53,891 nt of DNA from Candidatus Omnitrophota bacterium (GTDB lineage: Bacteria > Omnitrophota > Gorgyraeia > Aquiviventales > Aquiviventaceae): NCBI GenBank assembly GCA_016192545.1, contig JACPTX010000018.1, positions 1 to 53,891 on the forward strand, read 5' to 3'. How positions within the stretch are numbered: the stretch's first letter is position 1; the number at the start of each line of letters is the position of its first letter. A program made the translations under genes and the position numbers. Below are positions 35,377 to 46,710 of this stretch, piece by piece. A model generated the notes under the pieces. The model was given only the letters and a program-made list of their open reading frames with translations. It was not told the DNA's origin and did no database searches.

Positions 35377-35447
35377 GCGGGTGTAGCACAGTGGTAGTGC
35401 GCCAGCTTCCCAAGCTGGTAACACGGGTTCGATTCCCGTCACCCGCT
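35377..35447 (+). tRNA. tRNA-Gly (anticodon CCC)
   Basis: Cloverleaf folded by hand: GCGGGTG/CACCCGC acceptor, GCAC/GTGC D stem, CCAGC-TTCCCAA-GCTGG anticodon arm, ACGGG-TTCGATT-CCCGT T arm. No encoded CCA. Confidence 0.9.
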
Positions 35448-44023: not shown

Positions 44024-44051
44024 GGCGGGGGCGTGCTACAGTGTGCCCGCT

Positions 44052-45047
44052 ATGAGTCGCCCAACCACGACCATCGCCGTGCTCGGGGACGGGGGCTGGG
44101 GCACGACCCTGGCCATCCACCTCCACCGCCTCGGCCATCACGCGCGGCTGTGGGGGGCGTTTCCCGACTACGTCAAGCAGCTGAATCGCCGCCGGGAAAA
44201 CGTCAAGTTCCTGCCTGGCATCCCGATTCCGCGCGCCCTGTCCATCACGGCTGACCTGCGCGCCGCCTTAGAGGGGGCCGACGTGGTCGCCGTCGCGGTG
44301 CCGTCCCAGCACCTCCGCTCGGTCATCCACCGGCTGAAGGGCATCCCCCTCGGCCGTGCCGCGTTCCTCAGCGTCGTCAAGGGCATCGAGCTGCGGACCC
44401 TCAGGCGGATGTCGGAGATCCTCCGGCAGGAGCTGGGCCCTCTCCCGCTGGCGGTCCTGTCCGGCCCGAATATCGCCCTGGAGATTGCCCATGGACAGCC
44501 GGCCAGCTCGGTGATCGCCTCGACGCACGCCGGCCTGACTGAACGCCTGCAGCACGTGTTCATGAGCGAGCGGTTCCGCCTCTATACCTCCCCGGACGTC
44601 GTCGGCGTCGAGCTGGGCGGGGCGCTGAAGAATCCGATTGCGATTGCGGCCGGCATCGGGGATGGCCTGGGGTTCGGCGCCAATGCCAAGGCCGCCCTCA
44701 TCACGCGCGGCATCGTCGAGATGGCGCGGCTGGGCACGGCCATGGGCGCGCACAACGCCACGTTCTGGGGCTTGAGCGGTCTGGGAGACCTGGTCACCAC
44801 CTGTCTGGGCGGACGCAACCGGTGGCTGGGCGAGCAGATCGGGCGCGGCAGGACCCTCTCCGCGGTCCTCGGCAGCACCCCGATGGTCATCGAGGGCGTG
44901 GACACGACGAAGGCCGCCGTCGCGCTGGGCCGGCGGCACCGGGTGGAGCTGCCCATCATCGAGCAGGTGCACGCCGTCCTCTTCCGCCGCAAGGACCCCC
45001 GCAAGGCGTTGCGCAGCCTCATGCTCCGCGCCCGCAAACCCGAGTAG
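44052..45047 (+). CDS. gpsA: NAD(P)H-dependent glycerol-3-phosphate dehydrogenase
   Basis: IAVLGDGGWGTTLA...GPNIALEIA...LKNPIAIAAGI...GDLVTTC. Confidence 0.93.
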   Translation: MSRPTTTIAVLGDGGWGTTLAIHLHRLGHHARLWGAFPDYVKQLNRRRENVKFLPGIPIPRALSITADLRAALEGADVVAVAVPSQHLRSVIHRLKGIPLGRAAFLSVVKGIELRTLRRMSEILRQELGPLPLAVLSGPNIALEIAHGQPASSVIASTHAGLTERLQHVFMSERFRLYTSPDVVGVELGGALKNPIAIAAGIGDGLGFGANAKAALITRGIVEMARLGTAMGAHNATFWGLSGLGDLVTTCLGGRNRWLGEQIGRGRTLSAVLGSTPMVIEGVDTTKAAVALGRRHRVELPIIEQVHAVLFRRKDPRKALRSLMLRARKPE

Positions 45048-45050
45048 TTG

Positions 45051-45059
45051 TGTTACAAT
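45051..45059 (+). promoter_or_regulatory. Extended -10 promoter element TGTTACAAT upstream of the tRNA-Pro locus
   Basis: TGn-TACAAT at 45051-45059. No good -35. The predicted start is a few nt before 45070. Confidence 0.45.
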
Positions 45060-45069
45060 CTTCTCCATC

Positions 45070-45244
45070 TCCGGGGCGTGGCTCAGCTTGCGACTGAGCC
45101 CGTTGTTGGGCGAAGGAGCCCCTGCAGCTACGTTTGGCAGAGCCAAACGTGCAGGGGGTAGCGCGCCTGTGGAGGAGCGTAGCGACGACATCCCGCCGAT
45201 GTTGTCATCGGCGGGAAATGGGGTTTCCCGCGGCCACTGAATTC
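45070..45244 (+). ncRNA. tRNA-Pro-derived, hairpin-rich RNA-like region (pseudo-tRNA fragments or uncharacterised structured RNA)
   Basis: A 21-nt exact copy of the tRNA-Pro 5' end at 45070-45090. Perfect hairpins at 45080-45100, 45119-45157 and 45192-45215. D-arm-like GGTAGCGCGCCTG at 45157-45169. Anticodon-arm mimic GGGAA-ATGGGGT-TTCCC at 45213-45229. Confidence 0.4.
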
Positions 45245-45321
45245 CGGGGCGTGGCTCAGCTTGGTAGAGCGCCTGAATGGGGTTCAGGAGGTCCCGAGTT
45301 CAAATCTCGGCGCCCCGACCA
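45245..45321 (+). tRNA. tRNA-Pro (anticodon GGG), CCA encoded
   Basis: CGGGGCG/CGCCCCG acceptor, GCTC/GAGC D stem, CCTGA-ATGGGGT-TCAGG anticodon arm, CCGAG-TTCAAAT-CTCGG T arm, then A-CCA. Confidence 0.92.
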
Positions 45322-45342
45322 GTCAGGTGGCCGCGGGACAGG

Positions 45343-45379
45343 CAGGAGGTCCCGAGTTCAAATCTCGGCGCCCCGACCA
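45343..45379 (+). repeat. Exact 37-nt duplicate of the tRNA-Pro 3' part (anticodon-stem 3' strand through CCA)
   Basis: 45343-45379 is identical to 45285-45321. The two copies are separated by 21 nt. Confidence 0.9.
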
Positions 45380-45402
45380 TTGAATCAACGAAGAGTGGTG
45401 AC

Positions 45403-46710
45403 ATGGCGCAGCGCATCAACATCGGGCTCATCGGACTCGGCACCGTCGGGACGGGGGTCGCCCGCGCGCTCCTGGAGAAGGCGCATGCCCTGGAGCAGCG
45501 CATCGGCGCCCGCGTGGTGCTCAAGCGCGTCTGCGACCGCAACCCCCGGCCGCCGCGGCATCTCCGGCTGCCGGCCGGGCTCTTCACGACGGACATCCGC
45601 AAGATCCTCCGCGACCCCGAGATCCAGGTGGTCGTCGAGCTCGTCGGCGGGGTCCAGCCGGCCAAGGGTTTTGTCATCGAGGCCATGCGGCGCGGCAAGC
45701 ACGTCGTGACCGCGAACAAGGCCCTCCTCGCCGAGGAAGGCAAGGAGCTGTTCACCGCCGCGGACCGCTACGGCGTGGACCTCTATTTCGAGGCGTCGGT
45801 GGGCGGCGGGATCCCCATCATCAAGGCGCTCCGCGAGGGCTTGATCGCCAACGAGCTCAACACCATCATCGGCATCGTCAACGGCACTTCGAACTACATC
45901 CTCACGCAGATGCGCGACGAGCGGCTCAGCTTCCATGAGGCGCTCCTGGAGGCCAAGCACCACGGCTACGCCGAGCGCAACCCGTCGCTGGACATCGAGG
46001 GGCACGACGCCGCGCACAAGCTGGCGATCCTGACGCTCCTGGGCTTCGGCGCCCGCGTCCACGTCGAGGACATCCACACCGAAGGCATCAGCCGCATCTC
46101 GCAGGCCGACATCCAGTACGCCGGCGAGATGGGCTACTGCATCAAGCCGCTCGCGGTCGCCAAGCAGGTGGGCCATGAGCTGGAGGTCCGGGTGCACCCG
46201 GCCCTGCTCTCCACGTCGCACCTGCTGGCCAACGTCAACGGCGTGTATAACGCGGTCTACGTCCACGGCGACCTCGTCGGGGCCCAGCTCTTCTACGGCC
46301 GCGGGGCGGGGCAGAACCCCGCCGCCAGCTCCGTGCTGTCCGACATCGCCGACGTCGCGCGCAACGTCGCCCTCGGCATCGCCAAGCGCGTGCCGGCCTA
46401 CTGTCCCGCGCCGCGCCGCCTGCGCCTGCGCCGGATGGACCGGGTCGAGACCCGCTACTACATGCGCTTCACGGTCATCGACAAGCCCGGGGTGCTGGCG
46501 AAGATCGCCGGGGTCCTCGGCCGCTTCCGCATCTCCATCGCCAGCGTCCACCAGAAGGAGCGCAAGACCGCCCGGATCGTGCCCGTCGTCATGATGACCC
46601 ACGAGGCCCGCGAGGCGGACGTCCGCCGGGCGCTGTCGGTCATCGACGGGATGGGCGTCGTCAAGTCCAAGACCGTCGCCATCCGCACCGAAGCCCCGCG
46701 CGGGAAATAA
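45403..46710 (+). CDS. hom: Homoserine dehydrogenase (with C-terminal ACT domain)
   Basis: INIGLIGLGTVGTGV...EASVGGGIPII...NGTSNYIL. ATG 45403 lies within track ORF 45277. Confidence 0.93.
   Translation: MAQRINIGLIGLGTVGTGVARALLEKAHALEQRIGARVVLKRVCDRNPRPPRHLRLPAGLFTTDIRKILRDPEIQVVVELVGGVQPAKGFVIEAMRRGKHVVTANKALLAEEGKELFTAADRYGVDLYFEASVGGGIPIIKALREGLIANELNTIIGIVNGTSNYILTQMRDERLSFHEALLEAKHHGYAERNPSLDIEGHDAAHKLAILTLLGFGARVHVEDIHTEGISRISQADIQYAGEMGYCIKPLAVAKQVGHELEVRVHPALLSTSHLLANVNGVYNAVYVHGDLVGAQLFYGRGAGQNPAASSVLSDIADVARNVALGIAKRVPAYCPAPRRLRLRRMDRVETRYYMRFTVIDKPGVLAKIAGVLGRFRISIASVHQKERKTARIVPVVMMTHEAREADVRRALSVIDGMGVVKSKTVAIRTEAPRGK

Follow-up and report, generated by a model that had tools for sequence, protein, structure and literature searches.

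Transfer RNA (tRNA) genes are known sites of DNA insertion, and genes for GIY-YIG nucleases are known to lie beside the tRNA genes of phages. One such enzyme, the homing endonuclease SegB, cuts within phage tRNA genes and thereby promotes their segmental amplification through homologous recombination (PMC13096335), and with SegB and the free-standing GIY-YIG enzymes of the T4-like phage tRNA cluster the tRNA region is preferentially inherited or segmentally amplified (PMC13096335; PMC2988022). Here, we analyzed a gene for tRNA-Pro(GGG) that is located between gpsA and hom on a stretch of 53,891 nucleotides (nt) from a Candidatus Omnitrophota bacterium (assembly GCA_016192545.1, contig JACPTX010000018.1, positions 1 to 53,891), hereafter referred to as the window. 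The intact gene is enclosed by exact copies of its own 5' and 3' parts, and cassettes encoding a nuclease of the GIY-YIG clan occupy the same locus in related genomes. We favor, with moderate confidence, the interpretation that the region carries DNA-level scars of such a tRNA-targeted nuclease cassette rather than a designed composite RNA.

As in the T4-like phages, a GIY-YIG-clan nuclease gene adjoins tRNA genes at this locus. The situation differs, however, in that a bacterial chromosome is affected, always at the same housekeeping locus and in the gene for one tRNA species only, that the nuclease, with HNH_repeat as its DNA-binding module, is of the T5orf172/MUG113 branch, and that the resident gene is split and apparently replaced in function, with nested halves left behind. 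Islands and plasmids inserted at tRNA genes by integrases, e.g., pSAM2 in tRNA-Pro, share with this locus the partial tRNA copies that flank the insert, the anticodon-loop breakpoints, the tandem accretion of cargo including toxin-antitoxin genes and the preservation of tRNA function, but here the inserts hold no integrase, the junctions are imprecise, a whole replacement tRNA is carried, and 5' and 3' parts are both duplicated in nested order. In collaborative or intron-less homing (cyanophage psbA, T4 mobE; PMC2790892), an interrupted target protects the carrier, and nuclease and interrupting sequence move together. The interruption in the present case, in contrast, is a complete second gene copy with a closing helix and not a self-splicing intron, and splicing is neither needed nor indicated. 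Archaeal split and multi-intron tRNA genes (Nanoarchaeum; Thermoproteales) are likewise interrupted at loop positions and carry 12-14 nt of GC-rich complementary sequence, and their disruption has been linked to conflict with mobile elements, whereas in this bacterium neither a bulge-helix-bulge nor a splicing endonuclease is evident, an intact copy is present, and the interrupted copy is decaying and unconserved. Finally, the RNase III-type stalks formed by leader and trailer of ribosomal RNA operons resemble the helix around the live tRNA described below, as a long GC-rich helix surrounds a stable RNA and is kept by compensatory change and not by sequence. The helix found here surrounds a single tRNA and occurs only at loci with dead tRNA halves.

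Literature searches found no description of an Omnitrophota tRNA-nuclease cassette with nested tRNA halves, and to our knowledge free-standing homing endonucleases have been studied almost wholly in phages, organelles and introns or inteins. A chromosomal single-locus, tRNA-specific nuclease cassette in Omnitrophota appears to be new, as do the functional replacement by a carried tRNA instead of splicing or 3'-end restoration, the nested half-genes that result from it and a covarying stalk.

The intact tRNA gene lies within an interrupted outer copy

ARAGORN and Rfam (RF00005; 62.9 bits vs. a gathering score of 29) both identified an intact, functional gene for tRNA-Pro(GGG) with encoded CCA at 45245-45321 on the plus strand, in agreement with a preliminary description of this DNA. 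The exact copies that this description had reported were found as well: nt 1-19 of the tRNA together with 2 leader nt (45243-45263) recur at 45070-45090 (21/21), and the last 37 nt (45285-45321) recur at 45343-45379 (37/37). Neither repeat can be extended by even one base, and two exact repeats of 21 and 37 nt inside 355 nt rule out chance. A search of the region with Rfam at gathering and permissive thresholds, as had been suggested, returned tRNA as the sole family, with no group I intron, ribozyme, T-box or small RNA among the matches.

The flanking pieces read as one colinear outer tRNA-Pro gene that is cut by three inserts, and not as scattered fragments. The pieces of this dead outer gene (45072-45090, 45157-45169, 45216-45225 and 45343-45379) are arranged in the order of the tRNA and span nt 1-77 with a single mismatch. 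The first part (45070-45090) comprises the 2 leader nt and nt 1-19 and is followed in the outer D-loop by insert i (45091-45156, 66 nt), a GC-rich hairpin filler of the type cgacYgagcc...gcgaaggagYCCC. The second part, GGTAGCGCGCCTG (45157-45169), represents nt 19-31. The preliminary description had listed this stretch as a 12/13 match to the D-arm region, and the match to nt 19-31 of the window's tRNA holds, but the stretch is actually an exact copy of another tRNA-Pro allele, namely that of the related loci L011 and L020 (13/13 to the L020 tRNA). Since GGTAGCGCGCCTG is exact to an allele of relatives and at the same time colinear with the 5' fragment, the flanks are read as a single interrupted tRNA. 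Insert ii (45170-45215, 46 nt) separates outer nt 31 from nt 32 and consists of the linker ggagcgtagcgacgacat and a hairpin, stem A, with arms at 45191-45201 and 45206-45216, the final base of which is the extra A that opens the next part. This is the very position taken by the nuclease gene in L110 and, exactly, by the nuclease open reading frame (ORF) in L108. The next part, AAATGGGGTT (45216-45225), corresponds to outer nt 32-40, an anticodon loop remnant with one extra A, and at least 12 Omnitrophota loci conserve it in the form GGGAAATGGGGTTYCCCGC. Insert iii (117 nt, between outer nt 40 and 41) contains the 5' strand of a stalk, the live tRNA, the 3' strand of the stalk and the junction filler CAGG (45339-45342), which elsewhere is TAAACATCC or CCGGT. 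The last part (45343-45379) represents nt 41-77 and ends 23 nt before hom, the position of the tRNA 3' end in relatives with a plain gene.

The preliminary description had further listed three perfect hairpins. Two of them are perfect, the 7-base-pair (bp) stem at 45080-45100, which insert i forms jointly with the D-arm, and the 10-11 bp stem at 45191-45216, whereas the hairpin at 45119-45157 within insert i consists of stems of 8 and 9 bp with a 3-nt bulge. The minimum-free-energy fold of the region reaches -172.9 kcal/mol (z = -6.5 vs. shuffled sequence), largely because of the repeats, and the whole region is closed by CGGGGCG/CGCCCCG, which bears out the second acceptor stem proposed earlier. 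The outer D-stem of the window is mismatched because its two arms come from different alleles. The outer composite (45072-45379) was not recognized as an intron-containing tRNA, as ARAGORN and Rfam detected the inner gene only; the group I intron model gave no match in the window region (E <= 10) or in seven related loci (E <= 1); and no bulge-helix-bulge motif was evident by eye at 45225/45226 or 45342/45343. It is also not kept as a complete unit across relatives, where halves are missing or damaged (L001, L013, L010, L092, L094).

The filler module of insert i also fills breaks after nt 19 (L108, L110) and after nt 31 (other loci), and among the DNA fetched, its motifs occur at tRNA-Pro loci only. 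Filler of the form TG(C/T)GACCGAGCCGGGCACCCCGCC...GGCGGGGTCGGCGAAGGAGYCCC was observed in breaks after nt 19, 31 or 66, varying by genome (window 45091-45156, L094, L108, L110, L003, L015, L092, L006, L012). A genome-wide family of miniature inverted-repeat transposable elements or repetitive extragenic palindromes was considered for this filler and rejected, as in the 53.9-kilobase (kb) window it occurs at this locus only and in viral contigs not at all.

A covarying stalk encloses the live tRNA

The leader and trailer of the live tRNA form a stalk. Its 5' strand, TCCCGCGGCCACTGA (45226-45240), and its 3' strand, TCAGGTGGCCGCGGGA (45323-45338), pair as a perfect helix of 12 bp (45226-45237 with 45327-45338) or, with one bulge, as a helix of 14 bp, so that the clamp around the tRNA described earlier was recovered. 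Fifteen stalks of live tRNAs contain 14 different leader strands, each paired with its own trailer. Pairing amounted to 96.7% of the alignment cells compared to 76.6% in shuffled and 44-55% in slid controls, a value which is inflated because the alignment was assembled by complementarity. Ten of the 12 stalk pairs change on both sides, which was reached in none of 500 shuffles (0/500), and the comparison of homologous loci that had been recommended thus yielded strong covariation for the stalk. Live stalks contain 176 Watson-Crick, 3 G-U and 1 A-C pairs, whereas dead outer stalks display 1 G-U and 2 A-C pairs and more mismatches than the live ones. The preference for G-U over A-C in live stalks hints at selection at the RNA level, although the numbers are small. 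The stalk is kept by compensatory change and probably acts in RNA; it could shield folding of the live tRNA from the competing, perfectly complementary dead halves of the same transcript, provide a processing site, or both.

No such covariation was found for the stem-loop GGGAA-ATGGGGT-TTCCC, which the preliminary description had regarded as a mimic of the anticodon arm. Complementary sequence is present, in fact as a 7-bp inverted repeat, GCGGGAA-ATGGGGT-TTCCCGC, but its arms are the 3' strand of stem A (hairpin 45191-45216) and the 5' strand of the stalk, and the apparent stem-loop is merely the junction of two longer helices, with a base, TCCCGC/GCGGGA, that is common to both. As a selected hairpin the mimic was rejected, since its pairing across loci was no better than in shuffled controls. 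Where TTCCC has changed from T to C (L006, L077, L092), the compensating A to G change occurs in the stalk trailer and not in GGGAA. The earlier argument that a compensatory stem change in the mimic speaks against decay therefore does not hold.

The nested arrangement recurs in related genomes

The best relatives of the window's Hom protein come from groundwater genomes of Candidatus Omnitrophota and are at most 80% identical. The order gpsA-tRNA-Pro(GGG)-hom is kept in at least 20 related genomes. About 12 of these loci carry a plain tRNA gene 7-50 nt before hom and without a stalk, and about 15 are of the nested design with up to three levels (L085, L108); the latter include the window, L001, L005, L006, L012-L015, L077, L085, L087, L092, L102, L108 and L110. 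The preliminary description had considered that relatives might show a plain tRNA-Pro and no covariation of the hairpins; about half of the loci are indeed plain, yet the nested layout recurs and the stalk covaries. The nested order is [outer nt 1-31], linker, stem A, AAATGGGGTT, stalk 5' strand, tRNA, stalk 3' strand, filler and [outer 3' part], and in many related loci partial tRNA copies were found with 5' parts upstream and 3' parts downstream. At the 5' junction, at least 12 loci share the constant sequence GGGGTT|YCCCGC. The 3' junction varies, and the outer tRNA resumes at nt 41 after CAGG, at nt 46 after TAAACATCC or at nt 45 after CCGGT. Many outer copies are incomplete, as L013 and L010 lack the 3' half and L001 lacks the 5' half, and others are damaged, by an anticodon-stem deletion and a mismatch in L092 and by a D-arm deletion in L094. 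The outer 3' half of L001 is identical to the window allele (37/37) but not to the very different live tRNA of L001 itself, which identifies the live tRNA as the newcomer at this locus.

Nuclease cassettes occupy the locus in relatives

Occupied alleles emerged from the genome loci and from a metagenome scan for GGGAAATGGGGTTYCCCGC. Six occupied loci were examined (L107, L094/L100, L010, L108, L110 and L118), and the only gene common to all of them encodes a nuclease. The cassettes comprise about 1-2 kb with the nuclease as the only constant gene. As called, the protein has 241-273 amino acids with a homing-endonuclease-associated repeat and a MUG113/T5orf172 domain of the GIY-YIG clan; for the L107 protein, Pfam matches were HNH_repeat (2.5e-9), MUG113 (1.2e-14) and T5orf172 (5.8e-8), with MNT and HepT as neighbors. 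The cassettes of L107/L010, L094/L100 and L118 contain, downstream of the nuclease gene, an intact tRNA-Pro(GGG) of their own that represents a different allele, often with an MNT/HepT pair or other small cargo after it. In L108 and L110, the nuclease gene immediately precedes the stalked live tRNA. Both halves of the split resident tRNA are still present in L107.

Three pairs of empty and occupied alleles at one site could be compared. From stem A to tRNA nt 39, the window and L094/L100 are identical (75/75), after which L094/L100 run into the cassette. The plain locus L020 and the cassette-bearing L010 share the same leader at 94% Hom identity, and at 94% Hom identity to L015, L110 carries MNT/HepT and the nuclease after a duplicated stalk and 5' fragment. 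Foreign-allele fragments beside resident tRNAs (the outer 3' half of L001, 45157-45169 in the window, and fragments in L010) are compatible with co-conversion, without proving it. The closest nuclease relatives examined (73-100%: P0001, P0005, P0006, P0008, L094/L100, L010) all reside at the gpsA-tRNA-hom locus. No recombinase or integrase was seen among the insert ORFs of the six occupied loci, where ORFs were inspected and Pfam was run only for the L107 nuclease, MNT and HepT; this includes L010 and L110, in which gpsA and hom delimit the complete insert. Direct repeats of tRNA parts flank the inserted DNA, as they do in att scars left by an integrase.

Several features of the inserts are recorded here in their own right. 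Toxin-antitoxin cassettes (MNT/HepT, VapB/VapC-like and others) pile up between tRNA-Pro fragments at the gpsA-hom locus of different genomes (L014:1960-2596; L077:900-1680 and 1950-2900; L021:2190-2830; L003:2450-2760; L110:2650-3280). In the L094/L100 cassette, an ORF that by eye is NYN/LabA-like (L100:1-330, minus strand) follows the tRNA in place of MNT/HepT, suggesting that the cargo is modular. The nuclease-tRNA-MNT-HepT unit of L107 is bracketed by 33-nt repeats (32/33; TTCCTGCTAACGCCCTGCTAACAAAAAMGGCGC) at L107:1285-1317 and L107:2946-2978, which may represent a recombination or duplication boundary of the cassette, and L107:3170-3335 is the reverse complement of the preceding approximately 160 nt, a palindromic assembly artefact and not biology.

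Origin of the locus

In the scenario that we favor, the ancestral state would have been a single tRNA-Pro(GGG) gene between gpsA and hom, into which a small mobile cassette entered again and again. The gene would be broken by, or together with, the nuclease cassette, through homing or break-induced duplication, and repair would copy the cassette into it; the breakpoints cluster in the anticodon arm (nt 31/32 and 38-41) and the D-loop (nt 18/19). As the cassette in several loci supplies an intact tRNA-Pro(GGG), this tRNA would take over the function of the broken resident gene, the 5' and 3' halves of which would stay as flanks. During misaligned repair, an end in AATGGGGTT may anneal to an earlier AATGGGGTT upstream of the leader, which would duplicate the units [leader + nt 1-40] and [nt 41-77 + trailer]. 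Further breaks and imprecise repair would add nesting levels and GC-rich hairpin filler, and later deletions would strip the nuclease and its cargo. The window would thus represent an end state, with a dead outer tRNA and the live tRNA as part of its third insert.

A number of observations weigh against this scenario. The window holds no nuclease gene, only the nuclease-free scar, and the link to the nuclease is made through relatives with Hom proteins of at most 80% identity. Relatives of the nuclease with about 60% identity, from other phyla, are solitary genes next to toxin-antitoxin modules, and no tRNA gene lies closer than 3-4 kb to them, so that tRNA targeting is not a family-wide trait. 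In L108 and L110, the tRNA adjoining the nuclease gene has an ordinary anticodon arm, which leaves the self-immunity of the carrier unexplained, and a cassette also does not explain the locus-specific hairpin filler, the clustering of breaks at tRNA loop positions or the base shared by stem A and stalk. The pairing percentage of the stalk is overestimated for the reason given above. Finally, the L107 junctions share the core GAATGG and 33-nt direct repeats surround the cassette, both of which would also fit site-specific recombination.

The latter feature leads to the alternative that survives best, although we consider it unlikely, in which a tyrosine or serine recombinase encoded elsewhere in the genome or on a helper element uses the anticodon loop of tRNA-Pro(GGG) as an attachment (att) core, cassettes are mobilized in trans, and the fragments are attL and attR of deleted elements. 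The anticodon loop is the classical crossover site of tRNA-targeting integrases, e.g., of pSAM2 in tRNA-Pro, and the breaks here border the 7-nt anticodon loop. The GAATGG at both L107 junctions and the direct repeats around that cassette would fit, GCGGGAA-ATGGGGT-TTCCCGC has the look of a core made of inverted repeats around an identical 7-nt overlap, L006, L015 and L110 contain sites of hybrid appearance (GGGAAATGGGGTTCAG), and toxin-antitoxin cargo accumulates in tandem. However, no integrase was seen among the insert ORFs of any occupied allele, L010 and L110 included, cassettes bring a whole tRNA and not a displaced part, 5' and 3' parts are both duplicated in nested order, and the breakpoints vary (nt 15, 18/19, 29-31, 38-40 and ~52) as does the 3' filler, for which imprecise repair is the better fit. 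Scars of site-specific integration and excision, one of the explanations offered in the preliminary description, came closest in that cassettes do split this tRNA in relatives, but the lack of an integrase and the nested halves, which are not classical att repeats, are at odds with it.

Somewhat less plausible still is a spontaneous tandem duplication by slippage or unequal crossing-over followed by decay, with the cassettes as passengers at a site prone to breakage. In L006 and L092, [leader + nt 1-40] and [nt 41-77 + trailer], units of about 59 nt, are repeated with near-identical leaders and trailers, and the 5' and 3' fragments in the window are 100% identical to the live tRNA. Against this, fragments of foreign alleles are present (the outer 3' half of L001, window 45157-45169, L010), the junction GGGGTT|YCCCGC recurs across lineages with different tRNAs and stalks, a nuclease gene was found in 6/6 occupied loci examined, and the other tRNA gene of the window, for tRNA-Gly (35377-35447), is plain. 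The decayed tandem duplication considered earlier is thus only partly compatible with the data; identical leaders at some levels are what break-induced misaligned repair would give.

A further reading, which we regard as improbable, likens the locus to split or intron-bearing tRNA genes, of which it would be the bacterial equivalent. The stalked tRNA would then be a mobile, 'intron-like' insert at nt 40/41, and stalk and loop hairpins would be RNA-level adaptations (folding insulators, processing sites, or outer halves assembling into a second tRNA-like RNA) that arose from an arms race in which a chromosomal homing endonuclease targets an essential tRNA gene.

A functional nested RNA is, in our view, a quite improbable explanation. 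Here, outer halves and stalk would build a second tRNA-like or split-tRNA-like molecule or a structured regulatory leader of hom-thrC, and RNase P and RNase Z would free the live tRNA from the 'anticodon arm'. The outer segments are colinear over nt 1-77 with one mismatch, the outer acceptor stem is closed in the minimum-free-energy fold, the stalk covaries, the inserts sit at tRNA loop positions, and complementary GC-rich stretches lie after the 5' half and ahead of the 3' half, a layout similar to that of the split tRNAs of Nanoarchaeum. The strong fold (z = -6.5) is, however, a trivial outcome of the repeats, the outer D-stem of the window is mismatched, A-C mismatches accumulate in outer stalks, and neither ARAGORN nor Rfam reported an intron-containing tRNA or a group I intron. 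Above all, the outer copies are not conserved, being missing, truncated or mutated in L013, L001, L010, L092 and L094, and about 12 relatives, roughly half, have a plain tRNA without a stalk, so that the composite structured RNA put forward earlier finds no support as a conserved unit.

An assembly artefact, in which reads from strains that differ in their tRNA-Pro allele were collapsed or joined as a chimera, is very improbable despite the metagenomic source and the obvious palindromic artefact at the end of the related contig L107, as the repeats of 21 and 37 nt are shorter than the k-mers commonly used for assembly, many independent assemblies show this architecture with sequences specific to their lineage, identical sets occur (L014/L090/L103, L092/L104, L094/L100), and the independent Logan contig L117 breaks exactly inside the 3' repeat, as it would at a real repeat.

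If the nuclease-cassette mechanism is true, the locus would provide an example of a chromosomal bacterial homing endonuclease that is aimed at an essential single-copy tRNA gene and avoids killing its host by a spare tRNA and not by splicing. The nested "fossil record" could yield the order of repeated invasions, and enzymes that recognize long, tRNA-gene-specific sites might be obtained from the nuclease subfamily. The locus would also account for odd tRNA pseudo-fragments in metagenome-assembled genomes, which may serve as a warning for annotators, and is a naturally occurring instance of a bacterial tRNA enclosed by a covarying leader/trailer stalk.

Flanking genes and further observations

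The locus is bordered upstream by gpsA (glycerol-3-phosphate dehydrogenase; 44043-45047, plus strand), which tblastn placed 5' of the tRNA in 19 related loci, and, as described before, downstream by hom (homoserine dehydrogenase; 45403-46710, plus strand). An exact look-up of the window's gpsA product gave no match, and that of Hom gave only a 1.6-kb contig. The second tRNA gene of the window, for tRNA-Gly(CCC) at 35377-35447, has no partial copies, stalk or hairpin filler.

Upstream of the outer tRNA, TGTTACAAT (45050-45058, plus strand) is a possible extended -10 element for a tRNA-hom-thrC transcript. The element claimed earlier is thus present and plausible, but a sigma-70 consensus scan found no full promoter upstream of the tRNA in the window; at the equivalent place, relatives have TTGACA-N17-TGnTAnnnT. 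Only 7-26 nt separate the tRNA end from the start codon of hom in the plain loci L002, L004, L011, L016 and L018, and a reading of the printed flanks, for which no terminator scan was made, revealed no T-run resembling a terminator. The short distance and the apparent lack of a T-run suggest that the tRNA is probably co-transcribed with hom-thrC, in which case 3' processing of the tRNA would create the 5' end of the mRNA.

A scan of viral contigs for GGGAAATGGGGTTYCCCGC gave one irrelevant match, and the same scan of metagenomes gave 26 matches. Ten of the latter (L084, L086, L088, L089, L093, L096, L098, L099, L101 and L105) belong to an unrelated intergenic hairpin with the identical 19-mer GGGAAATGGGGTTTCCCGC on low-GC soil contigs that apparently are not from Omnitrophota. 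These contigs were rejected as related loci and the matches treated as chance; in L093, the one contig whose ORF translations were read, the ORFs beside the motif look unrelated and no recombinase was recognizable by eye. The ORFs beside this hairpin appear ATPase-like and NurA-type-like by eye, and the occurrence of the hairpin in low-GC contigs is probably a coincidence.

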